Part shown: in pieces, positions 5,280 to 58,677 of the stretch | Numbering within the stretch: position 1 is the first letter of the stretch | How the letters are laid out: each line of letters starts with the position of its first letter | IMG/VR virus record: IMGVR_UViG_3300028800_000062 | Coordinates: 32,001-96,000 of that record | Origin: a virus | Direction: 5' to 3' (one strand) | Length of the DNA stretch: 64,000 bases | Notes under the pieces: model-generated | Databases searched by the model: none | What the model saw: only the letters and a program-made list of their open reading frames with translations | What the model was told of the DNA's origin: nothing | Position numbers and translations under genes: made by a program

Positions 5280-8200
5280 ATGCGAATCTCCTTGGCCGCT
5301 TTAGTACTGATGCTCGCGAGTCTTCCCGGTCAAGCCCAGGTTCCCGCGGGCGGAGCTCTTACAGGCAACTTCCCTCGGCCGCACCTGGCCCCAGTGCAGA
5401 CGGATGTGCTTACTTTCCAGGGCAACCTGACATTTACCGGAAGCCTGGATGCCTCCGCGAGTCTGAATACCAAGCCAATCCAGATCGGCTCGGTGTTGCC
5501 GCCTACACCTTGCAGTCCCTGGTCCTGGTTTATTCTGACCACCGGCGTGCCAGGCCAGAACTTGTACGAATGCACTCTTAGCGGCACATGGCTCGAAGTA
5601 CTAGGTATCGGGGGTGGCAATGGTAATGTTCCGTTCGGCGGAACTGCTGCGCAGGTGCTGCGCGGCGACCTTACCTGGTTAACTCTAAACAGCGATGCCG
5701 TTCCGGAAGGAACGACAAACCTGTATTTCAGCCAGGCGCGCGCCATTGCCGCGTTATCCGGTTTGTATCAGGCTCCCATCTTAGGAGCTCCATCTACCTG
5801 GCCTACTTTGGCGACCGTCAGTTCCACGGGAAGTTACAACGACCTCTTGAACAAGCCGACGATCCCCGCCGGCCAGGTCAACGCCGACTGGAATGCAGTA
5901 TCAGGCCTGGCGGCAATTGCAAACAAGCCTACGGTTCCCGGTAACACTTCGCAGCTTCCGGAGAGCGGCAATCTTTACTTCACCAATGCCCGCGCGGTCG
6001 CAGCCATGAGTGGGCTCTATCAGACGCCTATCTCCAATGCGCCAGGTGTCTGGCCAAGTTTCGCCGCCGTGGCCATAAGCGGCGCATATTCCAGTCTGTC
6101 CGGACTGCCCACCATCCCGGCCGCACAGATCAATGCCGATTGGAATGCCAGTTCCGGCCTGTCTCAGATCCTCAACAAACCGACGATTCCCACTACCACC
6201 AGCCAGATCAGTGAAGGGACGAACCAATACTTCACTCCAGCCCGTGTTGTTTCGGCGATGGCCGGCTTGTATCAATCGCCTATCTCCGGTGCTCCAGGGA
6301 CCTGGCCTGGTTTCGCGGCCGTCGCCACAAGCGGAAGCTACGTGGACTTAAGCAATAAGCCCACAATCCCCGCAGCTCAGGTAAACAGCGATTGGAGCGC
6401 AGTCAGCGGGCTCGCGCAGATCCTGAATAAGCCGACGATCCCGACGAACACTTCACAGATCACCGAGAATGGCAACCTTTACTTCACCCCAGCGCGCGTA
6501 CTGTCTGCGATGTCTGGACTGTACCAGGCGCCCATTACCGGCGCTCCCGGGACGTGGCCAGGCTTCGCCGCGGTGGCAACGTCTGGCAGTTACGCCGACT
6601 TGTCGAACAAACCAACGCTGGTAACTCTCGGCGGATTCGCCAACCCAATGTCCGCGGCCGGCGACTTCATCGTAGGAGGCGCCGGAGGCGTACCGCAAAG
6701 ACTGGCCGCTCCGGCCAACGGTACCTACTGTCCGAACTGGTCTACCGGGGTAGTCACTTGGATCGCCTGCCCGGGAAGCGGCGGCGGAATATCTTCGATC
6801 ACAATGACCGTTCCCTCCGGATTTGGTATCGCCGGCTCGCCGCTGACTGCAAATGGCACGCTGGCCATTTCCTTGGCCTCTCAGTCCGGCAGCTATGCAC
6901 TCATAGCGCCGACCGCAGGTGGTGTTCCTACCTGGCGCGCACTCGTACCCGCAGATATACCGATGCTGAACCAGTCTACTTCTGGAAACGCGGCCACCGT
7001 CACCAACGGCCTATATTCCAACGGAACTTACAACGACCCGTTGTGGCTGACGCTGACCTGGGCCGGCGGAAGGATCACGGGCATCCCGTCCTTCGCAGCT
7101 GTGGCCACGACTGGCGCATATTCGAGCCTATCCGGTTTGCCTACGATCCCAGCCGCCCAGGTCAACTCTGACTGGAACGCAATTTCCGGACTGGCTCAGA
7201 TCCTGAATAAGCCGACGATCCCATCCAATACGTCACAGATCACCGAAAGCGGCAATCTATACTTCACCAATGCCCGCGTACTGACGGCCATGTCCGGCTT
7301 GTACCAAGCCCCGATCTCTGGAGCTCCCGGCACCTGGCCTAGCTTTGCGGCCGTGGCCACATCCGGTAGTTATGCGGATCTCAGCAGCAAACCTACCTTG
7401 ATATCGCTGGGCGGCTTCGCAGATCCGATGACCACAATCGGTGACTTCATCGTGGCCGGCGCGTCCGGCGTACCGCAACGCTTGGCGGCTCCTACAAATG
7501 GAACGTATTGTCCGAACTGGGCGACCGGCGTGGTGACCTGGACTTCCTGTCCAGCAGGCATTTCTTCAATTACGTTTACCGTTCCTTCAGGATTCAGCGC
7601 GTCCGGGTCTCCCCTGACCGCGAATGGCACACTGGGCTTTTCCCTTGCCAGCCAGGGCAACAGCTATGTGCTGATAGCTCCTACGGCGGGGGGTGTCCCT
7701 ACCTGGCGTGCTCTGGCACTCACCGACATTCCCACCACGCTGACGGGCATCACCTTGGATTCGGTAACGCCTACGACATTCGGTTACTTGGATGCCACCT
7801 CCAGCATTCAGACCCAACTGAACGGCAAACAGAACACCATCAGCGGCGCCCCGGGAACGTGGCCTACTCTCGGAACCGCCGCCGCACAGAACACGGGAAC
7901 ATCCGGAGCAACCCTTGGGTTACTGAACGGAACGTTGACCTTCTCGGGCGCGAATAATTACGGTACGCCGGCCAGTATCAACTTAGCGAATGCGACCTTC
8001 CCCACGCTCAACCAATCGACCAGCGGCAACGCCGCCACGGCTACCAGCATTGCCGCCGGGGCAGTGGGGGCTATCCCATATCAGTCCGCAGCAAGCACCA
8101 CGGTATTCCTGCCCGGCAATGTCGCCGCAACCGATCAGGTAATGGTGAGCCACGGCACCGGCGCCGCCGCGCAAGCCCCTACGCTCAGTAACGCTCCCGC

Positions 8201-8828
8201 CCTTTCTATTACCAGTATGACTGGCACGCTCCCCGCAGCACTCGAACCGGCCCATACAGGCGATATGCATAATACCGCGGGCAGCCTGGTGACTGTAGTA
8301 GCAGCCATTAACGGCGTCACGGTGTCGGGTAGCGCGACGGCCGGCAAGATTCTCAACGCCACAAGCGGCATCGCCGCGGCCTGGACGGCAACGCAGACGC
8401 TCGGGGCATCCGGCACTCTCGGTTCGCTGACGATGGGGAACGCCACCAGCGGTTTACTTACCTTGCAGCCTGTGACGGGGGCTCTCGGCACGGTCACGAT
8501 GTCGATCCCAGTGCCTGTTGGCGGATCTACCCTGACGCAGACCATTGCTAACGTCCAATTGGCGCTGCCTACCGTGGCGGTGGCCGGCAACGCGTGCAGC
8601 GCGAGTGCTACGACCGCTACGGCAACAGGTGCCGCCACTACTGATACCACAGCAATCACTTATGCCTCTGATCCAACCGCCGTGACTGGATACGGCGCAG
8701 GAACGAACGGTGGCATCACGATCCGGCCTTGGATCACAGCAAACACCATCAACGTGAAGTTGTGCAATGAGACGGGGACGAGTATTACACCAGGGCCTCT
8801 GACCATCAACCTGAGGGTCACACGATGA
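5280..8828 (+). CDS. Repeat-rich tail-fibre-like protein with signal peptide
   Basis: Likely start ATG 5280 (MRISLAALVLMLASLPGQA-Q); multiple copies of an approximately 90-aa unit QVNSDWNAxSGLAQILNKPTIP...EGxNLYFT...FAAVATSGSYxDL, motifs common in phage fibres. Confidence 0.75.
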   Translation: MRISLAALVLMLASLPGQAQVPAGGALTGNFPRPHLAPVQTDVLTFQGNLTFTGSLDASASLNTKPIQIGSVLPPTPCSPWSWFILTTGVPGQNLYECTLSGTWLEVLGIGGGNGNVPFGGTAAQVLRGDLTWLTLNSDAVPEGTTNLYFSQARAIAALSGLYQAPILGAPSTWPTLATVSSTGSYNDLLNKPTIPAGQVNADWNAVSGLAAIANKPTVPGNTSQLPESGNLYFTNARAVAAMSGLYQTPISNAPGVWPSFAAVAISGAYSSLSGLPTIPAAQINADWNASSGLSQILNKPTIPTTTSQISEGTNQYFTPARVVSAMAGLYQSPISGAPGTWPGFAAVATSGSYVDLSNKPTIPAAQVNSDWSAVSGLAQILNKPTIPTNTSQITENGNLYFTPARVLSAMSGLYQAPITGAPGTWPGFAAVATSGSYADLSNKPTLVTLGGFANPMSAAGDFIVGGAGGVPQRLAAPANGTYCPNWSTGVVTWIACPGSGGGISSITMTVPSGFGIAGSPLTANGTLAISLASQSGSYALIAPTAGGVPTWRALVPADIPMLNQSTSGNAATVTNGLYSNGTYNDPLWLTLTWAGGRITGIPSFAAVATTGAYSSLSGLPTIPAAQVNSDWNAISGLAQILNKPTIPSNTSQITESGNLYFTNARVLTAMSGLYQAPISGAPGTWPSFAAVATSGSYADLSSKPTLISLGGFADPMTTIGDFIVAGASGVPQRLAAPTNGTYCPNWATGVVTWTSCPAGISSITFTVPSGFSASGSPLTANGTLGFSLASQGNSYVLIAPTAGGVPTWRALALTDIPTTLTGITLDSVTPTTFGYLDATSSIQTQLNGKQNTISGAPGTWPTLGTAAAQNTGTSGATLGLLNGTLTFSGANNYGTPASINLANATFPTLNQSTSGNAATATSIAAGAVGAIPYQSAASTTVFLPGNVAATDQVMVSHGTGAAAQAPTLSNAPALSITSMTGTLPAALEPAHTGDMHNTAGSLVTVVAAINGVTVSGSATAGKILNATSGIAAAWTATQTLGASGTLGSLTMGNATSGLLTLQPVTGALGTVTMSIPVPVGGSTLTQTIANVQLALPTVAVAGNACSASATTATATGAATTDTTAITYASDPTAVTGYGAGTNGGITIRPWITANTINVKLCNETGTSITPGPLTINLRVTR
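5690..7740 (+). repeat. Degenerate internal repeats (approx. 270-nt units plus a duplicated approx. 330-nt block)
   Basis: Five NLYF/NQYF...SGxY units, and the block PMxxxGDFIV...GTYCPNW...PTWRAL occurs twice; homologous copies in genes at 48233 and 55346. Confidence 0.8.
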
Positions 8829-10819
8829 CGCGGATGATTCTACTGTTCGCGTTGGCTGTGGGTCTGCAGGCTCAGCAGCTTCCCTTTGGAAGCTTCACAC
8901 ATGTCAGCTTGACGGGAGGGGGCGGCGGAAATAGCGCATCCTTGCAATACGCCTACCAGACTGCACAGTCGGGAGGCACTGCCTCATCTCCCGCCATGGC
9001 GTTCCCTGTTACTACGGGGCATACCTTCGTTGGGTTCGTGTGGTTCTACAACAACGTTACACTCTCAACCATCACTACTTCTAAGGGTGACACCTGCACA
9101 ACGGTTCCATCGAGTGCCATTAACACCAGCGTTTTCACCCAGGAGGTTTTCTATTGCCTGACTGTCGCCGGCGGTTCCGGGTACACGGCCACGGCCACGT
9201 TCAGTGGCTCAAGTAGTTACAGCGCCATCTACCTGGCGGAGTACGGTGGAATCACGGGTGTAGACGTTGCGGCGCACAACAATGGGCCCAATGGGGCAAC
9301 GATGGCCCTGGCTTCGGCACTGACGCCTACTGTTGCCGGCGATCTGGTATTTGCTGCAGGCATCATATACGGGAGTGGGAACAGCTATACCCCGGCTGCC
9401 AACTTTGCGTTGCATATGCCAACTTTTGGTGGCAGCGGGGGCGCCTCGGATTTCACAGGTATTGAAGATTCAATGCAGGGCTCAGCCTCTCCGGTAACGG
9501 CGTTATTCACTACGGATGGGACCGGAGAATGGGGAGCGTCGGTAGTCGCCTTTAAGACCCAAACCTGGACCAACGCCATCCCGTATATCAGCAGTTCTGT
9601 AGGGTACCTAAACTCGAATGCGCTCACATCTCATACCACGGGTACGGTCAACAACACAGGGGCGTCGGCCATGCTGGTGTTCATCGGGACGCACAACCCC
9701 TGGAACAGTCTAGCTGTATCGATCTCTGGGGTAACTGACACAGCCGGTAATACGTGGACGCCTCTTGCAGGTCCAACACTTTTCACCGGGGCAAGTTGGC
9801 CTCTCTTAGGTGCTATCTACTATTGCACCAGCCCGAAGACCGCGACCAACGATGCGGTGACCGTCTCTCTGACCAACCCAGCCCCTATGGTTTTGGATGT
9901 CTATGCCCTCACTGGAAGCTCCGGCCTCCCCGTGACCTCCACCATTAACAGCCCAGCAGCAGGAACCGGCTCTACATCTCCAACGGCCGGTCCTATAACC
10001 GTCCCCGCCAACACCCTACTGATAGCGTGGGAGAAGAACGAGACAGCCGTAACATCAGCGACCACCGGGGCCGGGTTCGAGAAACTGTGGGGAGATCAAA
10101 GCGGTTACTTGACGCCCGAGTTTGCTTTCACCGCGACCGGAGGGTCCTTTAGTTCGGCATTCAACTTGTCGGGTTCTACAGGGTGGCAATCAGCCATCGT
10201 TGGATTGTCAGCAAGTACTACGCTTCCCACCTTTGACAATTCGGTAGCAGCGACAGGTGTCAATGCCACCACCATATCGGCCACCTTCACGGTCGCGGCG
10301 AATGCTACTGTCTTGTGTGCAATCGGCAACAATGTCCACGAGGTGCCGTCTGGGGTGTCCGATGGGACCAACGCTTATATCCCCACGGATGACGAGAGCT
10401 TATCTGGCAGTGCCGGAACTCTAACCATCTGGATGTACAAGTACACCGGAGCTGGCGGGTCGAAGACCATAACCGCCACGTCCTCTGCCGGGACCACCGG
10501 AGCAGCAATGGCTTGTGAGTCGTGGACAAACCTCACAGGTGGATGGGATCAAACTGCGGATGGTAACTCCGGGGGCGCGGTAGGCCCAACTGGCACGACG
10601 GCACACGCTAACGAAGTCGTATTTACTGCCGCTGCGCAGACGAGTTCAAGCCCATATACCGCGTGCTCTCCTGGAGCGATCCGCGCCACCTCTACTTATG
10701 CCGCAGGGCCAATGACTGTCTCCATCTGCGACTTGGTAGTATCCACTATCGGAACTGAAAGTACCGTCTGGACGGCGGACCATTCAAACGCGGCGTACAT
10801 CCTGGAGACGTTCTTCTAA
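8825..10819 (+). CDS. Secreted-type beta-rich adhesin/fibre-associated protein with three related domains
   Basis: Signal peptide MTRMILLFALAVGLQA-Q; three Ser/Thr-rich domains each with a variant of S(G/T)(V/I)(T/S)DxxNxW/Y; ATGA-coupled to the upstream gene. Confidence 0.6.
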   Translation: MTRMILLFALAVGLQAQQLPFGSFTHVSLTGGGGGNSASLQYAYQTAQSGGTASSPAMAFPVTTGHTFVGFVWFYNNVTLSTITTSKGDTCTTVPSSAINTSVFTQEVFYCLTVAGGSGYTATATFSGSSSYSAIYLAEYGGITGVDVAAHNNGPNGATMALASALTPTVAGDLVFAAGIIYGSGNSYTPAANFALHMPTFGGSGGASDFTGIEDSMQGSASPVTALFTTDGTGEWGASVVAFKTQTWTNAIPYISSSVGYLNSNALTSHTTGTVNNTGASAMLVFIGTHNPWNSLAVSISGVTDTAGNTWTPLAGPTLFTGASWPLLGAIYYCTSPKTATNDAVTVSLTNPAPMVLDVYALTGSSGLPVTSTINSPAAGTGSTSPTAGPITVPANTLLIAWEKNETAVTSATTGAGFEKLWGDQSGYLTPEFAFTATGGSFSSAFNLSGSTGWQSAIVGLSASTTLPTFDNSVAATGVNATTISATFTVAANATVLCAIGNNVHEVPSGVSDGTNAYIPTDDESLSGSAGTLTIWMYKYTGAGGSKTITATSSAGTTGAAMACESWTNLTGGWDQTADGNSGGAVGPTGTTAHANEVVFTAAAQTSSSPYTACSPGAIRATSTYAAGPMTVSICDLVVSTIGTESTVWTADHSNAAYILETFF

Positions 10820-11734: not shown

Positions 11735-14380
11735 ATGGCTGCGATCTTCGACGCCTCGTCGTATTTCACCAAACGCCAGTCGGACTTGCGCTACATGCAG
11801 GGTCCGCTGACGTCGCAGGAGATCACCGCGGCTTTGGGCGCCGGCAGCAACGGAAATCCATCGAACTATATTCCCGGCGGTATGATTGCTCCCGCTACGA
11901 TTCAAGCGTCCTCCATGGCTTCCGGCGCCATGGCTTTAGCCTTGTCTCTGGGAGGCCTTTCGGCCGTAACCATCATTCCGCCCTCCACCGCTAATACACT
12001 GCTGGCCTCCAGCATTTCGCTCGCAGGCAACCCCTACGTCCCGGGATCGGTAGTCTACTGGACTCCCACCGACGGCACGACGCTGGGCACCACCTCCAGT
12101 CTTTATACCGCGACCCAGAATAAGACTGGTGCGTCCATCACCATCAACTTCCCGTTCACCACTTCGACGCCTACGATCGTGCCAGTCAACGGCTTCTACT
12201 GGTCGAATACCGTTCCGGCCGCCAACATTACCGGCCTGCTGACCACGGCGCAGCTCGGCGCCAATATCGTGGGCACGGCGCAACTGGCGCAGAACATCAA
12301 ACCGAACACAGTGGTCAGTTCCCTGCCGACCATCACTGGCAATCCGGCGAACTATAACCCAGGTGACACCATCACCTTAATGGTTTCCGGCCAGGCACCG
12401 GTACTCTATCAGCTGGACAACAACAGTCAGTGGCGCATCATGATCACCCAAGGGCAGACTGCCACGCTGTCGACGACGGCCCTGACTGCCAGTTGGCTTA
12501 CCGCCGGCGCGATCTCCGCAGGTGCTATCAAAGCCAGCCAGATCGATGTCACGAGCTTACTGGTCACCGGCAATGCCGCCCTCACCAATGTTCTCAGTTT
12601 GACCATCACGGCCAATGTCATCACGGCGGCGTCCCTGGCCGTCAATTCCGTTACAGCCAACAGTATCAGCGCGAATGCTGTGGTTGCCGGCAAGATCGCC
12701 GCCAACGCCGTTACTGCGGGGACCATTGCAGCCGGCGCAGTATCCACTCAGAATCTGATCGTCGGGAACTGGTCTTGTCTGATGGAGGATCCTACCTTCG
12801 AGATCGAAGGGACTACACCCGGCAGCTATCCCAATTTAGGTTTCGTCTCGTATCCGGCGGGCACATATCCTTGGTGGGAAGACGGCCTAGGTCTGAAGGT
12901 GTGGGCAGGGTGGGGCCGTGGTGGGACTTACGGTGCACTCAAAGCGCATGGATCGAGTTTCAGCGGATGGCCCACCACCAGCTCGGCAAACATGCGGAAC
13001 CGGATGGTCTTCGCGGTCAAGGACGGTGACCAACTATATATCGAAGGCTGGGCCCTGCAAAATACCAACACCAATGCCTCGGCTGTCGCGCAAATGGACA
13101 TTTCATTCTTCACTGATCAAGCCAGCGCGCAACGTGCCACCTCCACTGACGGAGCCGTCACAAACCTGGTGTCGAACACTATAGCTCTCGAATGGGGAGT
13201 GTCTGGAACCAATACTGTCGTGCTGGTAGGAACAGGCACCTCACAAGCCGCCGGAGTCTGGTGCTTTGCTAGCAATGTGATCACGGTTCCCACCAATGCG
13301 CGCTGGGCCTTCGTGTCGCTGAGCGTGCAGGGGCAAACTTCCGGCGCCTGGGCAATGGACGACCTCTTTGTCATCTCGGCTACACCTTCGGCCTACATCA
13401 CTTCACTCAACGCCGCGGTGATTAACACGGGAACTTTGGCTGCCGACCGGATTGGTGCAGGCACATTAAACTGCACGAACCTATATGTCTCCAACATCAA
13501 CGGCCACGCCGGTCCATTTAACCTCACCGGGGGCATTCCAGGTTCAACCATTACCAGTCAGAGCATTACCAATACACAGATCGCCAACGCAACCATCACC
13601 AGCGCTCAGATCGCGAATGCAACGATCACCAACGCACAGATCGCTAACGCGACCATCACCAGTGCTCAGATCGCCAACGCAGCAATCACCTCGGCCAACA
13701 TCGCGAGCCTTAACGCGTCAGTCATCAACAGCGGAACTCTCACTGTAGGCGGGAATGTTTCTGCCAATGCGCCTGGATATATCCTAGCGTTGGACATCAG
13801 CAATAATCCGGTTGCCTGGATGGGAGTGTACGGTGGTTACTCAGGTTTGTGGGCTCAGAACGCCTATATAGGAGGAGCCAGTGCTGCGGTTGCCCCTATT
13901 GTAGGTTCCGCGGCAGGCGTGCATATTACAGGGGCAAGCATAGTCAACACCAGCTCGGATTCACACGGTACCTATACGGTGAATATTGATTCTGTTAATG
14001 GGATCAAACTAACCAACACTTCAGACGGCTCCTACAACCAGCAACAAAGCTGGGGTATGATGGGTTACACAATACATGGTCCTTCTGATCAGTATTCGCC
14101 GGCCTTTACTCCTTGCAACTATCTCTTAAGTGGAGCCACTCTGCAGCTACAAGTTTCTGATGCTTCTGCGGTTGCATCATTATCTATCTACCAAACTCAA
14201 GTTGCACGACATCCTGTGGAGTCACGCGGAACGTTATCACTAAGTTCCTCTACAACTGGTAATACCCTGCTTTTGAACCCAGATTGGATTGCGGTCAATG
14301 GGTCCAATGCGTTCACCGGGTCATTCTTGGACCAGGGCGGAACATCACACAGTGTAGTAAACGGTTTGATTATGAATTGA
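11735..14380 (+). CDS. Tail fibre-like protein with ITxAQIANA repeats and a putative carbohydrate-binding domain
   Basis: VTANSISANAVVAGKIAANAVTAGTI and ITSAQIANAT repeats typical of phage fibres; central DPTFE...ITVPTNARWAFV...WAMDDL jelly-roll-like segment. No signal peptide. Confidence 0.7.
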   Translation: MAAIFDASSYFTKRQSDLRYMQGPLTSQEITAALGAGSNGNPSNYIPGGMIAPATIQASSMASGAMALALSLGGLSAVTIIPPSTANTLLASSISLAGNPYVPGSVVYWTPTDGTTLGTTSSLYTATQNKTGASITINFPFTTSTPTIVPVNGFYWSNTVPAANITGLLTTAQLGANIVGTAQLAQNIKPNTVVSSLPTITGNPANYNPGDTITLMVSGQAPVLYQLDNNSQWRIMITQGQTATLSTTALTASWLTAGAISAGAIKASQIDVTSLLVTGNAALTNVLSLTITANVITAASLAVNSVTANSISANAVVAGKIAANAVTAGTIAAGAVSTQNLIVGNWSCLMEDPTFEIEGTTPGSYPNLGFVSYPAGTYPWWEDGLGLKVWAGWGRGGTYGALKAHGSSFSGWPTTSSANMRNRMVFAVKDGDQLYIEGWALQNTNTNASAVAQMDISFFTDQASAQRATSTDGAVTNLVSNTIALEWGVSGTNTVVLVGTGTSQAAGVWCFASNVITVPTNARWAFVSLSVQGQTSGAWAMDDLFVISATPSAYITSLNAAVINTGTLAADRIGAGTLNCTNLYVSNINGHAGPFNLTGGIPGSTITSQSITNTQIANATITSAQIANATITNAQIANATITSAQIANAAITSANIASLNASVINSGTLTVGGNVSANAPGYILALDISNNPVAWMGVYGGYSGLWAQNAYIGGASAAVAPIVGSAAGVHITGASIVNTSSDSHGTYTVNIDSVNGIKLTNTSDGSYNQQQSWGMMGYTIHGPSDQYSPAFTPCNYLLSGATLQLQVSDASAVASLSIYQTQVARHPVESRGTLSLSSSTTGNTLLLNPDWIAVNGSNAFTGSFLDQGGTSHSVVNGLIMN
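13565..13710 (+). repeat. 30-nt degenerate tandem repeat (about 5 copies)
   Basis: Encodes ITNTQIANAT ITSAQIANAT ITNAQIANAT ITSAQIANAA ITSANIASL. Confidence 0.85.
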
Positions 14381-45310: not shown

Positions 45311-45328
45311 CTATACTAGCAATGGGTG
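45311..45328 (+). promoter_or_regulatory. CTATACTAGCAA promoter-like motif (copy 2)
   Basis: ctatactagcaatgggtg in the 22-nt gap before GTG 45330. Confidence 0.55.
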
Positions 45329-47772: not shown

Positions 47773-47783
47773 AGGCTGAGAGA

Positions 47784-48236
47784 ATGCTAGAAGACTTCGG
47801 TTGGACCTCACGCGGCGGTTTGATGCTGGACGGCTCAGGCGATATTGCCATGACCGCGGTTGATGGCGCAGATAGTCTGATTTCCATGGTGCGCACCCGG
47901 GTCAAGGCGGAATTACGCGCCTGGAAGCTGTATACCATCGGAGCCGATCTGCAGAACCGGGTGGGTGATCTGATGGGACCGGAACTGGAGATTGCCATCC
48001 AGCGCCAGGTAACGCGCGCTCTCACCGCGGATAATCTATTGCCTGCCGGCTCATTCCAGGTACAGACCCTACCGGACCTCAACCGGATGTATGTGCTGGT
48101 ATATATCGGACAGACTCTGATTACCAGCGTGACTTTGAGTCAGCCGCAAACGTCCCCATCCACAACTTCCATGGCGGTCAACACGCCGATTCCCGGCAGC
48201 GCTATTCCAGGCGTCGCCATCCCAGGACTCTCATGA
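47784..48236 (+). CDS. Baseplate wedge protein, gp25-like
   Basis: DFGWTSRGGLMLDGSGDIAM...RVKAELRAWKLYTIGADL; downstream of the hub; C-terminal IPG repeats. Confidence 0.6.
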   Translation: MLEDFGWTSRGGLMLDGSGDIAMTAVDGADSLISMVRTRVKAELRAWKLYTIGADLQNRVGDLMGPELEIAIQRQVTRALTADNLLPAGSFQVQTLPDLNRMYVLVYIGQTLITSVTLSQPQTSPSTTSMAVNTPIPGSAIPGVAIPGLS

Positions 48237-51200: not shown

Positions 51201-51370
51201 CCGCGCCAGGCACTATTCAGTTTCAGATCAACGGAGCGAACGCTGGCAGCATTGCAACGGCTCCCACGGCTAACATGGCGCCCCAGTTCCTCACCACGAG
51301 TACAGGCGGCTCTCAGGAGTCATTGTTTGTGGACTGGTGGGCCATGAAGATTCAAGGGTTGACTCGATGA
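48233..51370 (+). CDS. Modular tail-fibre-like protein with signal peptide
   Basis: MKRFFGLLILCAAGLHG-Q; NSDWNA..GLAQILNKP repeats shared with 5280; C-terminal lectin-like domain (NTWYHLRI...QFQING...LFVDW). Confidence 0.75.
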   Translation: MKRFFGLLILCAAGLHGQPKYPAAVVSGVDLPTLTNNVQTYLTSAASSTDTTLQVLSTAAFNLPADGSLVVNSDNEFIHVCSKTTTTLTVCIGGRGYDNSAATAHVAYRVVKEIIVARSINQLNSEVTSIETALGPNLSNVQGLFQTWLALNGGSGGGAFVQTNSDWNASTGVAQILNKPTIPSNTSQITESGNLYFTNARVLAAMSGLYQSPINGAPGTWPSLASVATSGSYNDLANKPTLSSLGGLTNPMTTAGDFLVGGASGAPLRVAVPGNGTWCPNWSSGTVTWITCPGAGGSGITSISMTVPSGFSVAGSPLTANGTLAITLASQTAKYVLIAPSSNGVPTWRALTAGDIPALAYQATITGAPGTWPSFAAVATSGSYTDLSNKPTIPASQINSDWNASSGLAQILNKPTIPAAQVNSDWNAASGLAQILNKPSMYTTIYSTGLSMPQRTSINLIAGTNMTVGCVDNSGAARTDCTFSSSGGGGTGGSSGTYTGTVTFGTIPDGDCAISTYSAGGMAAGSSLTANWANAPSGTIGQAWGDTNLIYVDLCNFSGAAITPAFSLTASVGGGSGSGAGMSSQLGDLATVRSTGSVLTIGASCTSSVPCNVRFGTTSYSITTQATVTLGGSTLGTVFIYLTPSGTLTAGSSGPSLTCSSGCLVATGVTGFPTSALPIASWTTSAPGVWDTAGGADFRAFLSVAPSLANNAGITLTGSSSGYTIGTDNSIVPFKYSGIAAPGTVTGNLSGDFYNDTVNHNLYVCNAAFGTSAPACTSVTAGQWMLVNGSGGSSYTFRNNLVNTSGTVDFTPVDASVMDAMDDFLPSKNSNGAIGTLHWGVSTLGTSCGSNMVASQSNHPGIFQIVSGSTPGDGCSLTLSDNTEGALYPFINFGSAAGLSWEIQAIVQTDVSGVGNAKYLVGFSDSQSTYHPASGNDIAIRYDHSGGGCVSNESTTTWVYEVSVGGTKTCVNSGVAIASNTWYHLRIYSTAPGTIQFQINGANAGSIATAPTANMAPQFLTTSTGGSQESLFVDWWAMKIQGLTR

Positions 51371-54300
51371 AGATTCTCGTCCTACTCACGATTTGTGCTT
51401 GTTCCGGGTGGGCTGCCATCACCGGTTTTCAGGTGCAGGGTACCACGTCCACCCAGGTTCTGGTCTCTTATAAAGCGCCGGATGCCAATGCGTGCACGAT
51501 TCAAGTTAGTCAGAGCGCGAGTCTGACGCCGCTGGCACTCGATGTGGACCCTGCCACGTTTGCGAATTCCAATCTCGATCTGAGCCGGCCTAGCACCGTG
51601 ACTAGTGGAATGTCCAGAACGTTGCTGATCGGCCAACGCACGGTGCAATATGCGACCGCTGGGACATACTCAGGTGTCCGGCACTTTTCCCGCGCACTCC
51701 AGGCTTATACGCCTTACTTCGGAATGATTACCTGTCCCTCCACCGGGGATACGTACAACTTCACGTTTTCCACCGGCAACATTCCGCTGGGCATGTCCTA
51801 CGGGGATCCGTTACCGGCCGATCCCGCCGATCCGGGAAATCAACCCTGGCCGGAGGCGGTGGGAGGCTTGTCCCCGGAATCCTTCATCGACCCTTTTACC
51901 GGAACCTATCTCACGCGCCTGGGCCTGCGTTCGAATAACTTCGGGTATTGGGGCAGCTTTCCATTCGGATCAGCCTTTAATCAGGGTCAGTTTCCATGCG
52001 ACAGCGCGGGGCCGTGGACCAACCCCTGCGGCACGATCGTGACCGGAGGCGCCGGCAGCGTGACCGTACTCAATAGCCAGGCGCCCCTCATCATCCGGCC
52101 GCCGCTCGCCGGAGGCAATGCCTTCAATGGAGGGTATGGGTCCAACAATTACGGCAGCATGTGGACACTCGATCAGTTTGCGGTTTCTCTGACCGGGCTG
52201 GGCAGCTCGACCACTTCCGCATTCCGTGTCCTGGATGTCTGTCTGTCACTTAACGGCGGCGCTTCCTGCGCCAACTCCGCACAGCAGATCACCATGGGCC
52301 AGACCAGCAGCGTGCAGAAGGCCGGCCAGTACAACACCACGCAGTATGGAGTCATTCCCTGGTTGCTTGATACCAAGCCCAGACTGAACGTACAGGAGGC
52401 CTCGCCACACTCAGGAGCGGCTACCGTGAGCGGGAATACCGTCACCTGGGTTTCCGGCAACCTGTTCAGTCTTTATTGGGTGACGGGCGGTAATGGCACG
52501 GTCCGGCTATCGACTGTCTCAAGCAGCGACGCCTGCGCCACACCTCCCAATACCACCAGTTCGACGGAATACACCATCCTGGGTATGCCCGATGGAAATC
52601 ACCTGACGGTGTCCGGAACTCCTCCCGCGGGCAGTGTGTACTGGTGTGCTGACAATTTCGCTGTCATGGTGTGGCGCGATCAGGCGCCCTCCGACGGAAG
52701 CAGTATCACGCTCACGGCCGCTTCCATGGCCGCCATCGAGAGCACTTCTCCCACTTATCCGGATAACGGCGCGGACCACGCCTGCTTCAACAAGCTGGTG
52801 CAGGGTGGATACTTCTGCCTCTATGGCGGCCTTTACTGGATCAATCCTCAGACAGGTGCCTCTGCCTACTACGGTTACATGACGGCCCCGTCCAACAACC
52901 AGAGCGGGCAGGCGATCACTAATCCGTGGCATACCATAGGCATCATCCCAGCCAGTGAGTCAGCCAACATCGATCAATCGCAGAATGTCCTGACGTTTTA
53001 CACTACCGCGATCGATCCGACGAGTGCCACCGCACTGGTGATTCAAGGGGTATTCAATCCCACGACGATCGCAACTCCGGCGGCGCCTTACGTCAACGGG
53101 AGTCAGATTGGCAGCGCCAATGTGATCGGAAGCACGGCCTATTCCGTCACCTACAACAACGGTCTGACCTTTTCCAATCTCACGCCGCAGGTCAGTTTGA
53201 ATCAAGGAATTGTGGCTCAGATGGCCACACTCGACCCGACCTTCAAGGTCTCCCAGATAGGGTCGCCGTGGAATTGTCAAGCCTACGGGTTCTCAGGATC
53301 CCTCTTCTATTTAGGATGCTACACGAGTTATGAAGATGGTCCTGGTTGGATTCTGGCCTTCTCTCCAGGGGACGGCAATCCAGCGCATGCCGGCCAAGCC
53401 GGAGGGCCTCAGATTGTAGGGGCGATCAGCACTTTCAACACGCCCAGCAATGCGCCGGTTACCCCCGGGTATGTGGGGATGTACGGCCATGGCCTGCACG
53501 CTGTGGTGGAAGCCGACAGTGGCTGGGTGCAGGTCAACACGCACTTCCTGCAGCCGATCAACACCAGCAACAACACGTTGCCGGCAACCGGGGTGGATTG
53601 CTCTACCTACGGCCTGGCCAGCGGAAAGCAATGCACACTGCTGAACATCAACAGTTATACGCATGCTTCGGTGACCAGCTATGAGCCTTATTATGCATCG
53701 CCTTCCACTCCATTCACCGGAGCTCCCGGGGAAACCCGCACAGCACAGATCGGGGATACTGCCTGCGTGGCAGTCAGTACGTCGGGGAGCTGCAGCTATA
53801 CCAGCTCTCAGGAATTGCTGACGCTGGTAGCGAAGAACTATCAGGGAGTGCAGGGCGCCTGGGTCTTTCAGCGCAACGGCTACGGTGTAGAGAAGGCGAT
53901 CGCTACTGGGCCTATCACCCTCTGGTGGGCCGCGATCGCTGCGAACATGCCTCCCGGCAGCGCTGCGGCAGGATCTTTCAGTGTCTACTGGAACCCGGTG
54001 ACGGGTTGCGCCGGCTCGCCCGATCCGCACGGCAATTGTATGACGACCGATACCAATGAGACGGCCGGACACGGAGAATGGCGCAATGGCGGTGAAGCGG
54101 TGACTACCAACGTGCCGGACTGGTCGGTACCCATTATGGGTTGGGGCAGTGTATATCAAACCACTCTGGGAAATGTGCCCGGCATCCTCAGCTTGAACCC
54201 GACCAACGTGACACCTGATGTGACTCCCGGCATAAACTACGTGAACGACGAGCCTCCCTTTGCTGGAGTGTATGGTCATCCTTTCGGCTTCGACGCCGGC

Positions 54301-55329
54301 AGTCACCCGAATGCGCCGGGAAACCTGGCTCCAGCCAACGAGCAGATCCGCGCATTCGACAACGTCCCTCTACAGGGCGGCCAGAATGAACCGACCTGGG
54401 TGAGTATTTCCGGGCAACTCTATACCGCGGCGCCGGCATCCAATCTGGACGCTGACGATCCTTTTGGTTACGGATCCATTATAGCCATGAACCGTAAATT
54501 GTATGCCCAGGGAGCCAGCTGTGGACCCCATCCGCTGACGGATATAAGCGGACCGGCATCGAGTATTTCGACCTCTACTGCCAGCTCCTACACTTATTGC
54601 TTCGCGCGCACCGCGGGCGAATGTTATTCCGGTAGTTCGGTGGGTCAAGTCTATGTGAACTGCCCGGGAGTGACAGCAGTTACCTGTCAAGGTTCTGGGA
54701 TTCACGGCGGGGCGCCCTTCGGGGCCGGTGCGGATATTTGCCTGGGCAATATCAACAATACGGCCAATGCGGTCCGTCAGTTCACATTGGACCGGACGGA
54801 CATGGCCGGATTGCGCAGCCGCACCGTGGTTGCCGCCACGGCGCGCACCCGCATGGTGTACGGGTTCGAGAACAATGAGTTAGTGCCGGACAACTCCTGG
54901 CTGTTGTACCGCTCGGATTGGCTGGACTTTCAGCGCGCGGAGATGTGGGCGGCTAAGCTGCCGCCGTATCCGCCTGTCGATTCGGTGACGCGCAATACCT
55001 TCGTGCCTGTGACGGTCAGCCTGAGACCGGCTGCCGGCCTGCAGGTCAACAACGCCATCGTCGAGTTTGGGTATCAGGAATATGGGAATACGCTGCTCAA
55101 CTGTACTACGCGTAACGATATCTGCGTGTCCGCATCGAACGTCAGGATTTCCGGTACGCAACCGTTTTCCTTCATCTCTGAAAACCCGGCCGGGTTGGCC
55201 TGCGCCACCGGCTGCACTCTCGTGATTCCGGCCCTTTCGCAGAGAGTCCTGTATTACCGGGTCGTGTATCGTAGTCTAACTAACAGTGTGTTGTACACGG
55301 GTCCACTGACGTCAGTGGTGGTTCCGTAA
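51367..55329 (+). CDS. Large Cys-rich secreted-type beta protein (adhesin or enzyme, unknown)
   Basis: Start ATG 51367 (MKILVLLTICACSGWA); about 1320 aa, many closely spaced Cys pairs, ATGA-coupled. Confidence 0.65.
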   Translation: MKILVLLTICACSGWAAITGFQVQGTTSTQVLVSYKAPDANACTIQVSQSASLTPLALDVDPATFANSNLDLSRPSTVTSGMSRTLLIGQRTVQYATAGTYSGVRHFSRALQAYTPYFGMITCPSTGDTYNFTFSTGNIPLGMSYGDPLPADPADPGNQPWPEAVGGLSPESFIDPFTGTYLTRLGLRSNNFGYWGSFPFGSAFNQGQFPCDSAGPWTNPCGTIVTGGAGSVTVLNSQAPLIIRPPLAGGNAFNGGYGSNNYGSMWTLDQFAVSLTGLGSSTTSAFRVLDVCLSLNGGASCANSAQQITMGQTSSVQKAGQYNTTQYGVIPWLLDTKPRLNVQEASPHSGAATVSGNTVTWVSGNLFSLYWVTGGNGTVRLSTVSSSDACATPPNTTSSTEYTILGMPDGNHLTVSGTPPAGSVYWCADNFAVMVWRDQAPSDGSSITLTAASMAAIESTSPTYPDNGADHACFNKLVQGGYFCLYGGLYWINPQTGASAYYGYMTAPSNNQSGQAITNPWHTIGIIPASESANIDQSQNVLTFYTTAIDPTSATALVIQGVFNPTTIATPAAPYVNGSQIGSANVIGSTAYSVTYNNGLTFSNLTPQVSLNQGIVAQMATLDPTFKVSQIGSPWNCQAYGFSGSLFYLGCYTSYEDGPGWILAFSPGDGNPAHAGQAGGPQIVGAISTFNTPSNAPVTPGYVGMYGHGLHAVVEADSGWVQVNTHFLQPINTSNNTLPATGVDCSTYGLASGKQCTLLNINSYTHASVTSYEPYYASPSTPFTGAPGETRTAQIGDTACVAVSTSGSCSYTSSQELLTLVAKNYQGVQGAWVFQRNGYGVEKAIATGPITLWWAAIAANMPPGSAAAGSFSVYWNPVTGCAGSPDPHGNCMTTDTNETAGHGEWRNGGEAVTTNVPDWSVPIMGWGSVYQTTLGNVPGILSLNPTNVTPDVTPGINYVNDEPPFAGVYGHPFGFDAGSHPNAPGNLAPANEQIRAFDNVPLQGGQNEPTWVSISGQLYTAAPASNLDADDPFGYGSIIAMNRKLYAQGASCGPHPLTDISGPASSISTSTASSYTYCFARTAGECYSGSSVGQVYVNCPGVTAVTCQGSGIHGGAPFGAGADICLGNINNTANAVRQFTLDRTDMAGLRSRTVVAATARTRMVYGFENNELVPDNSWLLYRSDWLDFQRAEMWAAKLPPYPPVDSVTRNTFVPVTVSLRPAAGLQVNNAIVEFGYQEYGNTLLNCTTRNDICVSASNVRISGTQPFSFISENPAGLACATGCTLVIPALSQRVLYYRVVYRSLTNSVLYTGPLTSVVVP

Positions 55330-55345
55330 TAGGACTGAGATCTCT

Positions 55346-57049
55346 ATGATTACCAAAAGGTTGATTGCTTTCGTGCTGCTGGCTGGCGGGTTGTTCGGCC
55401 AACAGCCGATCAAGAGAAACATGATCTGCGTGGCGGCCAGCGGGTCGGGCACTGCTTATGCCTGTAACATCGCATCGGCTCCTTCTGCGTATACCCTGAG
55501 TGAACGTTATCTGTTCAAAGCGGATGTGGCCAACACCGGCGCTGCGACTATTTCCTTCAACGGTATTGGCGCAGTACCGATCGTGAAGCTGGTGGGTGGG
55601 GTCGCCACCAATCTGGCCGCCGGGGATATCCAACTCGGCGAATGGGTTAGTGTGATCTATGACAACACCGGCAGTCCGGTAATGCAGAAGCAGTCCATTC
55701 CGCAGGTTGTCGCGGACTGGAATGCCGCTTCCGGGCTGGCGCAAATCCTCAACAAGCCTACTATCCCAACCGGCGCTCCCAGCACCTGGCCCAGCTTCGC
55801 TGGTGTGGCAACATCCGGTAGCTACTCCGACTTGTCGAACAAGCCGACTGTGCCTGCAGCAGCGAGCACCACACCTGTAATGAATGGAACCGCAGCGATT
55901 GGATCCGCGGCAACCTACGCGAAAGCCGATCACGTTCACCCTACTGATACTTCCAGGCAGGCCACCATCACCGGAGCTCCCGGGACCTGGCCTAGTGCCT
56001 TTGCACCGGTTGCTCCCACGGTATCGACGCTGGGCGGAATCAACGCAAAGGATTGTTCCGTAGGTGGCCAGGTCATGCAGAAAGTCAACACGGATGGCAG
56101 TGTGACCTGTGTCAACCAAACTGGCGGAGGAATGGCCGACCCTGGTTCAAACGGCCTGTTGAAGCGCACGGGCATCAACACTACAGCAGTCGCTATAGAC
56201 GGACTGGGTGGCGATTACGTGTCGGCCGCCTCGGTCAATAACGGCACTTTGCCCATGAGCATTCTGAGCCTGCTGGTGGCCAATGGCATCACTGCCACCG
56301 GTAACATTTACGCCAACAGCACCAGTCTCGTAGCAGGTTGTGTGGTGCTCTCCGATTCCAACGCGGTGCACGATATGGGACTGTGCGCCCCGAGTTCCGG
56401 ATATTCAGGTTTCCTGAATCTTCCCACCGCCGCCGGCACTCTCAATCAGTTTCTGCTCAGTGACGGGAACGGGGGGCTCGTGTTCTCAGGCACGGCTCCG
56501 GCGGGAGCTGTAGTAGGTACCACGGACGCCCAGAACCTGAGCAATAAGGTCATCGATGGAGTGTCTGCGACCACGATGGCGTTCATGGATGCGACGTCTT
56601 CCATCCAGACCCAGTTGAATACCAAGTTCGCTACGGCGAATGCCGCCGCGGCTGCCACTCTAGGAGTTCCGATACCGCTAGGCTGTTCGGGATCGTCCAC
56701 CGCTAATACAACCGGGGGTGTCACTTACCTCTGGCCCTCCGGAGGTACTTATAGCTGTGCTAGCGGCACAGCGCCTGTAGGCATCATGGGTATCCCGATG
56801 CCCTACAACTGCACAGTCAAGTCGATGTATGTCAAAGTCAGCGCAGCCCCTGCCACAGGCAGCGATGCGGTAACGTTGTACCACAACGGCACAGCGAGCG
56901 CAGTGACTTGTTCTATAGGCCCGGGTCTCTCTTGTAATGACACGGCGCACAGCAGCGTGTTTTCCGCAGGTGACACTCTGGCGGTCGGTGTGGCTGTGCA
57001 GGCGTCGGATGCCATTGCAAATATCCGAGTTGGGGTTTCCTGCCAATGA
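55346..57049 (+). CDS. Tail-fibre-like protein with signal peptide
   Basis: MITKRLIAFVLLAGGLFG-Q; FKADVANTGAATISFNGIGAVPIVK, ADWNAASGLAQILNKP, YAKADHVHP and DATSSIQTQLN are common fibre motifs. Confidence 0.75.
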   Translation: MITKRLIAFVLLAGGLFGQQPIKRNMICVAASGSGTAYACNIASAPSAYTLSERYLFKADVANTGAATISFNGIGAVPIVKLVGGVATNLAAGDIQLGEWVSVIYDNTGSPVMQKQSIPQVVADWNAASGLAQILNKPTIPTGAPSTWPSFAGVATSGSYSDLSNKPTVPAAASTTPVMNGTAAIGSAATYAKADHVHPTDTSRQATITGAPGTWPSAFAPVAPTVSTLGGINAKDCSVGGQVMQKVNTDGSVTCVNQTGGGMADPGSNGLLKRTGINTTAVAIDGLGGDYVSAASVNNGTLPMSILSLLVANGITATGNIYANSTSLVAGCVVLSDSNAVHDMGLCAPSSGYSGFLNLPTAAGTLNQFLLSDGNGGLVFSGTAPAGAVVGTTDAQNLSNKVIDGVSATTMAFMDATSSIQTQLNTKFATANAAAAATLGVPIPLGCSGSSTANTTGGVTYLWPSGGTYSCASGTAPVGIMGIPMPYNCTVKSMYVKVSAAPATGSDAVTLYHNGTASAVTCSIGPGLSCNDTAHSSVFSAGDTLAVGVAVQASDAIANIRVGVSCQ

Positions 57050-58677
57050 GACGTCTCCTGTGGTTAGTCTTGCTGGTCGCGCCAGTCTTCGCGCAGACTT
57101 GCAATATTCTGACACCGAGCAACTGTAAGGACACTGGTTCGCCGGTTGGTTTTACCGGCAACCAGGCCTGCTCGGCGACGGACTTACTGCCTGGCGGAGC
57201 TTGCCAGAACGGCCTGTATGCCCAGTCTCCCACACTGAAGTCCTTCGTGACCGGTTTGTCTACTTCTTTGCCGGCATTGACGAGTTGGGCCGCGGCACAG
57301 CCGGCCAAGCCGCCAATCTATTTCTCAGGCGAACTGGTGCCGCTGTCCATGAATTACGTCAACCTGGATTCGCACTCCTGCGGAGGTTCCGGGGTGACCA
57401 AGTCCCTCAGTCCCTGCCCCTGGAACAATTACCTGAATGCCAACGCCTGGACGGATAAGCTGGTCAACGCACCACCATCCGGTGTGGGCTTGAACTCGCT
57501 GGATATCAATATCTGGACCAGCCCTCTGTTTACCTCGTCAACCTACGCGGCCGCCTGCACGAGTTATATCGCTGCAGGTGGCGGCAACATCTGTTCTTCG
57601 ATCGTGGCCAGCGTGACGGCCAACAGTCCGCAGGGTGCCTGTACGCAATGCACCGCCTCCAATATCGCCTGGTGGGCGCGCGGACTGACCACCTACCAGA
57701 ATGCGATCGCGCATATCAAGGCTAAGGCAGGTGTGCGGCTCCGGCTGGCACCAATGATCAATGGCGATACGCTGCTGGCCTGCAACATGAATCAGGGAGT
57801 TGGCAACTGGACCGCTCAACAGTTGCAGGATTGTATGATTCCCGCCGAAATCGCCATGGCAGCCTTGTGGAGTGTGGATGATCTTTCCATCTGGCACGAA
57901 CCTTGTGGCGTGGCCAAGCTGGTAATGAACGGCGGGACAGGTGGTTGTGTGCCGGCTGTTAGCGACCTGCACGCTATGATCACGATGGCTATCCCGCTAC
58001 TGAATGCCGCTTCCATCAACCCCAATATTCAGTTGGGTGCAGGTGTGACCGCGGGTGATATCGGAGGCATTCCGTATAATGCCAGCAATTCCGGCAACTA
58101 CTGGTCGGACTGGTTCACGATCCCTGGATTGAACTTCCAAGGTATCGACGCTTATCCTATTTCTAGTCAGCCGAGCAGCAACTACTTCACTTATACGATC
58201 AACGTCTTCACCATGATGACCCAGGACGCAATCGCGCATGGCAAGAAAGTATGGGACAGCGAGTCGGCGCCGCCGAGATGGGAAACCACAAATGCGTCGA
58301 TCGGTGCCGGTGAAAGCTCCGCTTACCTGGGGTGCGGCGATCAGGAGTGGTATAACGACGGAACCGGGCCGGCCTGGCTGCTCGCCTATACGTCTTATGG
58401 GCGGGCCGTAGGGCTAACCGGCTTCAGTCTGTTCGGTACGGAGATGTGGCTCGTCCAATCGACGGATCCAAACAATAACCACTGCAGTTCGAGCGGGGAT
58501 GGAACTCCGGGGCAATTCGACCAGTGGGCTCTCAATGCAGCGATCACCAATGCTCCGCTCTCCCCTTTGGGAACAGTGATGGGTCAAATCACATCGGATA
58601 ATTCCACGGATACGGTGCCGGGAGTCTCTTTGACAGGTAGGGCACGGCTGACCGGCCGCGCGAGATTAGGACGGTAA
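57046..58677 (+). CDS. Secreted-type putative glycoside hydrolase (clan GH-A-like TIM barrel)
   Basis: MRRLLWLVLLVAPVFA-Q; SIWHEP (acid/base-like), GIDAYP, KKVWDSES (nucleophile-like); Cys-rich. Confidence 0.5.
   Translation: MRRLLWLVLLVAPVFAQTCNILTPSNCKDTGSPVGFTGNQACSATDLLPGGACQNGLYAQSPTLKSFVTGLSTSLPALTSWAAAQPAKPPIYFSGELVPLSMNYVNLDSHSCGGSGVTKSLSPCPWNNYLNANAWTDKLVNAPPSGVGLNSLDINIWTSPLFTSSTYAAACTSYIAAGGGNICSSIVASVTANSPQGACTQCTASNIAWWARGLTTYQNAIAHIKAKAGVRLRLAPMINGDTLLACNMNQGVGNWTAQQLQDCMIPAEIAMAALWSVDDLSIWHEPCGVAKLVMNGGTGGCVPAVSDLHAMITMAIPLLNAASINPNIQLGAGVTAGDIGGIPYNASNSGNYWSDWFTIPGLNFQGIDAYPISSQPSSNYFTYTINVFTMMTQDAIAHGKKVWDSESAPPRWETTNASIGAGESSAYLGCGDQEWYNDGTGPAWLLAYTSYGRAVGLTGFSLFGTEMWLVQSTDPNNNHCSSSGDGTPGQFDQWALNAAITNAPLSPLGTVMGQITSDNSTDTVPGVSLTGRARLTGRARLGR

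Follow-up and report, generated by a model that had tools for sequence, protein, structure and literature searches.

Signal-peptide-bearing genes in the virion region of a large myovirus

The window analyzed here, a stretch of 64,000 nucleotides, corresponds to bases 32001-96000 of the 146,742-bp virus record IMGVR_UViG_3300028800_000062 (henceforth G000; CheckV completeness 68%). Scattered among its virion genes are 11 genes whose products begin with predicted signal peptides (SPs), and these are the subject of this analysis. The phage is a large myovirus with only distant kin among the cultured phages. PHROG and Pfam profiles recognize in the window the major head protein (2431-3792), the tail sheath (17367-19268), three tube-like proteins (19388, 20117 and 21008) and a giant transglycosylase protein of 1795 aa (39920-45307), while a Baseplate_J block lies on the minus strand beyond the window. 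The SP genes, together with a leaderless fibre that serves as a contrast case, are as follows:

5280..8828, plus strand: g5280, 1182 aa; leader MRISLAALVLMLASLPGQA followed by Q; 8 mature Cys; fibre repeats
8825..10819, plus strand: g8825, 664 aa; leader ending in LQA followed by QQ; 7 mature Cys
24340..24894, plus strand: g24340, 184 aa; leader ending in LSA followed by Q; 2 mature Cys
30354..33299, plus strand: g30354, 981 aa; leader ending in VFA followed by QC; 18 Cys; predicted right-handed β-helix
33313..34722, plus strand: g33313, 469 aa; leader ending in ASA followed by Q; 8 Cys; predicted SGNH/GDSL esterase
46456..46998, plus strand: g46456, 180 aa; leader MMRFLLVGIVGLLFAFSVMAAPA followed by Q; 2 Cys; in island 4
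47008..47772, plus strand: g47008, 254 aa; leader ending in AFA followed by QC; 6 mature Cys
48233..51370, plus strand: g48233, 1045 aa; leader ending in LHG followed by Q; 18 mature Cys
51367..55329, plus strand: g51367, 1320 aa; leader MKILVLLTICACSGWA followed by A; 28 mature Cys
55346..57049, plus strand: g55346, 567 aa; leader ending in LFG followed by QQ; 12 Cys
57046..58677, plus strand: g57046, 543 aa; leader ending in VFA followed by QTC; 16 Cys; orphan
11735..14380, plus strand: fibre without a leader, 881 aa; conserved N-terminus and variable body

The 11 SP genes sum to 22.2 kb, in agreement with the figure of about 22 kb of the window that an initial annotation had assigned to them. 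Two further leader-bearing genes are found beyond the window, both on the minus strand (genome positions 107611-108102 and 109819-112098), and the SP set amounts to about 17% of the record. The relatives used for comparison comprise a close one (G004) and two more distant ones (G002 and G003), with G002 being a complete 215-kb relative whose capsid protein shows 61% identity. Alignment further recovered capsid relatives in metagenome-assembled genomes (MAGs) of Acidobacteriaceae and Terracidiphilus, one of which, near the end of a 3.26-Mb contig, belongs to a degraded prophage with ordinary bacterial genes flanking it. The predicted host of this uncultured phage is a soil member of the Acidobacteriota. 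The genes of the prophage relative (G006:C4:3,210,000-3,251,300; L044-L047) are fragmented by frameshifts or assembly errors, and it stops after the giant transglycosylase protein, with ordinary bacterial transporter genes coming next; hence, it is unusable for fibre comparison.

Predicted Sec leaders and their resemblance to those of the host

All 11 genes had been described in the initial annotation as beginning with a basic-hydrophobic-AxA/G leader. N-termini were screened with a home-made rule-based scan that asks for a net positive charge in the n-region, a hydrophobic stretch of 8 or more uncharged residues, and small residues at both -3 and -1; 11/11 of them pass. Each opens with between one and three basic residues, which lead into the uncharged hydrophobic stretch and a small-x-small site. 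Inclusion of the two genes beyond the window brings the count to 13/13, as against 0/42 leaderless proteins of the virion region and 59/23,921 (0.25%) internal 45-residue windows; 13 passes among 55 N-termini correspond to a binomial P of about 1e-22. The capsid (2431), the sheath (17367), the three tube-like proteins and the fibre 11735 bear no leader, again as the initial annotation had it. Given that a GGAG/AGGA-like ribosome-binding site (RBS) is present 6-12 nt upstream in most of the 11, and that the upstream in-frame extensions are short, the annotated start codons appear to be sound. The leaders are also retained in homologues: that of g33313 persists with drifting sequence in the 74%-identical copy of G004, that of g51367 is present in 91/120 homologues, and that of a protein with an S74 domain encoded beyond the window is kept in four close relatives.

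The Tat and lipoprotein routes were considered and rejected for most leaders. The Tat motif S/T-R-R-x-F-L-K combined with a long n-region is absent, an MRRLL start being found only in g57046 and one protein beyond the window, both of which have leaders of 16 residues. Likewise, the canonical lipobox, L-[AS]-[GA]-C with Cys at +1, is missing from 10/11 leaders. The leader of g51367 has ICAC, while some of its homologues have LGAC and others no Cys; hence, its status as a signal peptidase II (SPII) substrate is ambiguous.

A distinctive feature of the leaders is their end: 10/11 in the window (11/13 overall) terminate in A/G followed by Gln. In a sample of 320 kb (L048-L063) from G006:C4, the Acidobacteriaceae MAG contig carrying the related prophage, 10/20 strict leader-like N-termini have [AGS]Q just past the hydrophobic core, against 10.6% of background windows, indicating that the phage leaders match the host's own pattern. 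These A/G-Q endings of the MAG leaders resemble the Q-rule, which was described for Bacteroidetes in a report that leaves Acidobacteria unmentioned (PMC5837995). Phages of Porphyromonas encode SP proteins that obey the Q-rule and have been proposed to modify the host envelope (PMC10367356).

Cysteine pattern and the case for periplasmic folding

The initial annotation had also described most of the leader-bearing proteins as rich in closely spaced Cys pairs, and both the enrichment and the spacing are borne out. Cys makes up 1.65% of the mature SP proteins and 0.65% of the other virion-region proteins, a 2.5-fold enrichment over core proteins (Fisher P 7e-14). The mature Cys count is even in 12/13 SP proteins as opposed to 21/42 of the others, g8825 being the only SP protein with an odd count. 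When consecutive Cys residues are paired as 1-2, 3-4 and so on, the median gap is 14 residues within pairs and 72 between them (P 3e-12); no such short-pair pattern was seen when the leaderless proteins were tested. Sequential oxidation by DsbA in the course of export would be expected to yield such local, consecutive pairs. A search of the phage record, which is 68% complete by CheckV, found no DsbA or thioredoxin gene. Two giant proteins, 25375-30336 (1653 aa) and 34729-39906 (1725 aa), have zero Cys, unlike the SP set, and the capsid protein is also Cys-free, in contrast to that set.

Thus, the leaders, their A/G-Q match to the host, and the excess, parity and pairing of Cys together give good in silico support to Sec export followed by periplasmic disulfide folding, which we consider very likely for the SP proteins, and these proteins almost certainly function outside the cytoplasm. 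Export itself, leader cleavage and disulfide formation, as well as the polysaccharide substrate proposed below, are what we infer. An opposing view would hold that the leaders are not export signals but chance hydrophobic N-termini, the products of wrong starts, or uncleaved anchors. The home-made and computational nature of the scan leaves room for this, as do the weak leader of the out-of-window S74 protein, in which a 9-residue core is followed by Arg, and the leader Cys of g51367, which might form a lipobox in some homologues. Yet the separation of 13/13 from 0/42 over a background of 0.25%, the presence of RBSs, the conservation of the leaders across homologues and a Cys parity and pairing that are hard to explain without oxidative folding make it highly improbable.

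Domain architectures of the leader-bearing proteins

Pfam searches gave no match for 9/11 window SP proteins, and PDB sequence searches gave none for g5280 or g51367. The tail-fibre and tailspike motifs that had been attributed to several of the proteins were recovered in g5280, g48233, g55346, g33313 and g30354, but not beyond these five. Among them is g5280, which matches PHROG 9729 'tail fiber' with an E-value of 5e-50, shows 36% identity to the tail fibre of Ralstonia phage phiRSL1 over residues 155-622, and has a further segment (about residues 51-104) that matches a bacterial secreted protein, the first of the triad described in the next section. A match to PHROG 9729 (E 1.4e-25) is also found in g48233, a mosaic of fibre repeats, a module of the same first protein and a 265-aa C-terminal domain belonging to the middle protein of that triad. 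The fibre repeats are common to g5280, g48233 and g55346 and are not phage-specific, an exhaustive search having placed 30 leader-bearing proteins among its top 150 matches; g55346 itself has no match in five Bryobacteraceae genomes. The smaller g47008 is linked to this group through its residues 61-128, which are 51% identical to residues 503-569 of g48233 and again match the first protein of the triad.

Two neighbouring proteins, g30354 and g33313, share a leader and Cys loop but differ in their bodies. In g30354, residues 70-161 match the Sf6 tailspike, the PDB entries 4urr/2vbe/7sg7 and pectate-lyase-fold chains (E 3e-5 to 6e-3), a partial match that covers only the start of the helix, and its β-helix is 36-49% identical to that of the middle protein of the bacterial triad. 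Residues 18-69 have no family or PDB match, and its N-terminus consists of the leader and the Cys loop common with g33313; the close relative G004 lacks a g30354 homologue. The body of g33313 is a predicted SGNH esterase (Pfam PF13472, 39.5 bits against a cut-off of 32.9) with the catalytic motifs GDS at 81 (the Ser of block I) and DxxH at 235 (the Asp-x-x-His of block V), and it also matches tail-fibre PHROGs.

The remaining proteins are more enigmatic. For g57046 no homologue was found among 5.8 billion proteins or in 301 Acidobacteriota genomes; a language-model search gave an Atlas feature score of 0.90 to families of clan GH-A (TM about 0.57), a lead according to which it is possibly a TIM-barrel glycoside hydrolase. 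No named family was recovered for g8825, whose nearest Atlas clusters are viral hypothetical proteins and which finds a weak match in 1/81 Bryobacteraceae-family genomes. The short g24340 lies in island 2, immediately ahead of the 1653-aa giant protein; the same position in G004 holds different SP genes, and a similar leader occurs elsewhere in G004. A pattern scan of IMG/VR found no relatives of the largest SP protein, g51367. Its AlphaFold2 (AF2) models, with a pLDDT of 84 for residues 17-1200 and of 79 for the C-terminal half, depict a compact all-β monomer (pTM 0.81) with fn3/Ig and propeller-like parts, and comparison of the model using Foldseek and VIA-align recovered only fn3/Ig and propeller-like pieces, with Z-scores of 8.2 or less and TM below 0.2.

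The Peptidase_S74 domain (PF13884) was matched by 0/11 window SP genes, but is present in an SP protein encoded beyond the window directly upstream of Baseplate_J (42.7 bits; SDARLK dyad at 612). This protein has 82 homologues, of which 64 begin like ordinary fibres and 18 begin with leaders, the latter including a Bryobacteraceae group in a small phage-like element. On a separate contig binned as Bryobacteraceae, a 480-aa SP protein (L066:3334-4776; MKH..PLAAQ, then V) with a fibre-like region adjoins a head-protein gene and belongs to a family of about 15 members of 427-482 aa.

A link to bacterial polysaccharide loci

The full-length homologues of g51367 number more than 100, at 50-65% identity, and several come from named Bryobacteraceae. 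The family is found in 27/81 Bryobacteraceae-family genomes, often in several copies; this count includes the unpublished genome G388, on which the claim does not depend. In 4/4 bacterial contexts that were read (L069, L070, L071 and L073) the homologue resides in a polysaccharide-biosynthesis locus, with genes for a Wzx-type flippase, Wzy_C, GT4 and GT2 transferases, heparinase II/III, Asn synthase, a deacetylase and epimerases. Three of these loci have their upstream genes called, and there it closes a conserved operon of three genes for secreted proteins; in the fourth locus the middle gene of the triad was not called. The three operons, each coding for three SP proteins, are:

L069:5626-13969, bacterial triad operon
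L070:5236-14026, bacterial triad operon
L071:5497-13969, bacterial triad operon

In the triad, the first protein measures 608-741 aa, the second, which contains a β-helix of the pectate-lyase type, about 848 aa, and the third, with about 30 Cys, about 1322 aa. The last of these is up to 65% identical to g51367 over 1320 aa, the two having the same leader type and about 28-30 Cys, and the middle protein has in common with g48233 a C-terminal stretch of 265 residues, at 61-68% identity. Moreover, the 4-nt overlap between g48233 and g51367 mirrors that of the bacterial pair, and modules of the triad's first protein recur in g48233, in g47008 and at the N-terminus of g5280. The phage g51367 itself lies outside any polysaccharide-biosynthesis locus, in a late virion operon.

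A tree computed with FastTree groups the G000 copy with that of a 204-kb relative as its sister, both nested among the copies from bacterial contexts. L074, a third phage that is unrelated to these (PHROG matches to portal and head protein; GC 50%), has a pair of SP proteins of 634 and 1349 aa right after its head genes, and its g51367-type copy falls in a different clade. The simplest reading of these relationships would be repeated capture by phages of a host secreted gene pair, a direction of transfer that we infer. Given the set of proteins shared with the secreted operon of Bryobacteraceae, at least part of the phage toolkit seems to have been captured from hosts with its export signal intact.

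Variable islands within late operons

Comparison with the relatives places the SP genes between conserved genes. Seven leaderless neighbours (4360, 10866, 25375, 34729, 39920, 45330 and 47733) have homologues in G002, whereas no homologue of the 11 SP genes was found in G002 or G003, and only g33313 of the 11 is shared with the close relative G004. The same island gaps hold different SP genes in G004, and in G002 other cargo, comprising a lipoprotein (judged from its leader) and peptidase-like and HNH-like genes (judged by eye). The SP genes are thus the cargo of variable islands between conserved core genes. Island 1, which g5280 opens between the Big_5 protein 4360 and the gene 10866, illustrates this: its occupant in G004 is an unrelated protein starting with MRTLLMKSLLLSCSLAALAYGQ followed by P, whose mature N-terminus is nothing like that of g5280. 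Indeed, no mature N-terminal module common to the same-island occupants of G000 and G004 was found. The fibre 11735 offers the contrast, with its first ~45 residues kept across G000, G004 and G002 while the body varies, a layout typical of particle-anchored fibres. A leaderless baseplate and fibre block is conserved in all relatives. G002, for its part, encodes two SP-bearing proteins rich in Cys (1067 and 323 aa) at the end of the baseplate block, which indicates that the habit of encoding such proteins is older than G000.

The leaderless proteins flanking island 1 (4360-5274 and 10866-11717) have in common a C-terminal module of 55 residues with 64% identity, which finds matches at the C-termini of PHROG 'tail fiber' families as well; 4360 begins with a Big_5 Ig-like domain. 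The baseplate block (genome 91108-112104, window 59108 onward) is on the minus strand, opposite to the genes around 47733, and in G002 it follows directly after the 47733 homologue on the same strand. The block looks like an inversion bounded by SP-gene islands.

The SP genes, several of which the initial annotation had described as translationally coupled to head or baseplate genes, lie close to their neighbours, with intergenic gaps of -4 to 17 nt for most of them and stop/start overlaps, such as that of the g48233 start with the stop of 47733. Two sets of motif sites are relevant to their expression:

45311..45322, plus strand: late-promoter-like motif CTATACTAGCAA, heading the operon of genes 45330 to 58690
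14732, 16660, 29562 and 45311 (plus strand) and 61678 (minus strand): CTATACTARCAA sites of the motif count

The operon following the 45311 motif comprises 45330, 46456, 47008, 47733, 48233, 51367, 55346, 57046 and 58690. With at most 1 mismatch, CTATACTARCAA occurs 5 times in the window, where 0.18 occurrences would be expected. The exact copies lie ahead of the sheath block, of the 45330 operon and of a minus-strand block, and the motif is a candidate late promoter. Given the gaps of -4 to 17 nt and the late-promoter-like motif at 45311, the SP genes appear to belong to late operons, and gaps of this size leave no room for separate expression. Morons expressed separately from their own promoter and terminator were rejected on the same two observations.

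These data bear on the view that the SP proteins are factors of lysogenic conversion, by which a prophage would alter the surface of its host for adhesion, slime remodelling or phage exclusion, in the manner of Lom and Bor of lambda or Llp of T5. SP-bearing morons beside tail genes are known, and the family of this phage is temperate, as witnessed by the degraded relative in the Acidobacteriaceae contig and by the provirus call of IMG/VR for G001. The Q-rule SP proteins of Porphyromonas phages, as proposed envelope modifiers, are a further precedent (PMC10367356). However, the SP genes leave no space for separate promoters, lie on the same strand as the late genes behind a late-promoter-like motif, and, with a total of 22 kb and products as long as 1320 aa, far exceed known morons; hence, we regard conversion as improbable.

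Accessory proteins or virion appendages

The reading we favour, with a probability of roughly 0.6, is that the SP genes code for late-expressed, Sec-exported, polysaccharide-directed accessory proteins that are partly host-derived. Under it, the 11 genes (13 in the record) would be expressed late from islands amid the head, tail and baseplate genes, and each protein would carry a Sec/signal peptidase I leader tuned to the host and cleaved before Gln, with the consecutive Cys pairs being oxidised once in the periplasm. The bodies would represent polysaccharide-directed modules, namely fibre repeats, a tailspike-type β-helix, an SGNH esterase whose catalytic triad is intact and a possible TIM-barrel glycosidase. 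A further group, made up of g51367, the C-terminal domain of g48233 and segments of g30354, g47008 and g5280, would be the one shared with the secreted operon in capsule/extracellular polysaccharide (EPS) loci of Bryobacteraceae. Their likely job would be to bind, cut or de-esterify the envelope polysaccharide of the host from outside the cytoplasm, acting either at the envelope of the cell in which they are made or, once it has lysed, on the slime and the cells nearby. On this reading, the SP proteins are not incorporated into the particle within the cytoplasm, although some of them may attach to particles after their release.

Several observations weigh against this reading. Classic features of virion fibres are present, namely the fibre repeats and, in the SP protein beside Baseplate_J, an S74 chaperone, and the SP pair of the phage L074 is located where tail fibres are expected. 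The model of g51367 could not be matched to any enzyme fold, the contexts read on the bacterial side number only four, the tree was read without branch supports, and the leader calls come from a home-made, computational scan. Furthermore, g8825, g33313, g55346 and g57046 have no bacterial homologue in the searched genomes (g8825 finds its weak match in 1/81), such that the term 'host-derived' covers part of the SP set only.

The principal competitor is the proposal of the initial annotation that the SP proteins are virion appendages which mature in the periplasm. After export, disulfide bonding and capping, they would bind to the cytoplasm-built particles once lysis mixes the two compartments. 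Fibres of T4 can join finished particles in vitro, so a late attachment has a parallel. The tail-fibre PHROG matches and the tailspike-like β-helix speak for this proposal, as do the S74/SDARLK protein directly upstream of Baseplate_J, the tight coupling of SP genes to baseplate-region genes, the two large SP-bearing, Cys-rich proteins closing the baseplate block of G002, and the position of the L074 pair after head genes. In addition, the mosaic adhesive trimeric (MAT) fibres of Bdellovibrio, which carry a signal peptide and an S74 domain, form trimers (PMC10769870), so that such fibres are evidently able to fold after export. Against it stands the want of a conserved mature N-terminal docking module among the island occupants, unlike the leaderless fibre 11735, and no docking partner was identified. 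Moreover, all relatives already conserve a leaderless baseplate and fibre block, and g51367 comes from a bacterial chromosomal family and is modelled as a compact monomer. Thus, the part of the proposal that concerns export and disulfide folding is upheld by the leaders, the Cys pattern and the match to the host, whereas the island comparison and the pedigree and model of g51367 speak against docking as a general rule; virion docking is in our estimate the less likely general explanation, and appendages of this kind are possible but doubtful. The alternative offered in the same annotation, that these are free or cell-envelope factors, fits at least as well as docking.

The appendage proposal can be extended into a bolder one, which we regard as quite doubtful: a two-compartment phage, whose capsid, tail and core fibre would be built in the cytoplasm, while a changeable set of Sec-exported, disulfide-locked and Gln-capped fibres and depolymerases would snap on at lysis and be renewed by the capture of enzymes from the slime locus of the host. 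An enzyme captured from such a locus would already be matched to the host polysaccharide. A search of the literature library at hand found no description of tail fibres or receptor-binding proteins with signal peptides as such a system.

Relationship to known systems and significance

The textbook assembly of tailed phages is wholly cytoplasmic, and the SP proteins that phages encode tend to be small and low in number, comprising spanins, exclusion lipoproteins and some auxiliary gene products. The SP set extends two known kinds, the depolymerase and fibre proteins of phages and the SP-bearing accessory proteins of phages. With the former, such as the P22 and Sf6 tailspikes and the K1F endosialidase, it has in common the β-helix start of g30354, the fibre repeats and the location in late virion operons, and the S74 chaperone of the K1F endosialidase is paralleled, complete with an SDxxxK dyad, in one genome-mate encoded beyond the window. 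However, known tailspikes and depolymerase fibres lack a signal peptide, reach their fold inside the cytoplasm and possess a conserved N-terminal particle-binding domain, whereas the N-terminus in the SP set is a predicted cleavable leader and no shared docking module was found. With the accessory proteins, exemplified by Lom and Bor of lambda, Llp of T5, Cor and the SP proteins of Porphyromonas phages, it shares the use of the host Sec system and often a position beside tail genes, and in the Porphyromonas case the cleavage pattern also mirrors that of the host (PMC10367356). Proteins of the Lom/Bor type are small, few and often separately expressed, while the SP set comprises 11-13 proteins of up to 1320 aa, takes up about 17% of the record and lies in late operons.

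Two bacterial systems provide further parallels. The Bryobacteraceae triad resembles the phage set in the full-length homologue of g51367, the C-terminus of g48233, the same gene overlap, and the β-helix and other modules; the phage copies differ in lying in a late virion operon and in being fused to fibre repeats, while the triad copies are found among glycosyltransferases, Wzx/Wzy and heparinase-like genes. The Bdellovibrio MAT fibres are tail-fibre-like mosaics with signal peptides, many with S74, that act outside the cytoplasm (PMC10769870). They are thus alike in their signal peptides, mosaic tail-fibre character and S74 chaperones (one in the present phage), but are encoded by chromosomal genes of a predatory bacterium and have a conserved β-rich domain of about 130 aa after the leader (PMC10769870).

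What is new here is the homology to genes of host polysaccharide loci and the analysis of the islands; the homology also brings to light an uncharacterised, widespread family of secreted proteins in the polysaccharide loci of Bryobacteraceae. About a sixth of the record is given over to big fibre- and enzyme-like proteins with in silico marks of periplasmic maturation. If these proteins were to join virions after lysis, they would represent a new assembly route; if they stay free, they would constitute a large phage-encoded secretome directed at the host matrix. The link to the EPS locus of the host hints at how phages that infect slime-rich soil bacteria may, by a simple route, acquire polysaccharide-specific tools.

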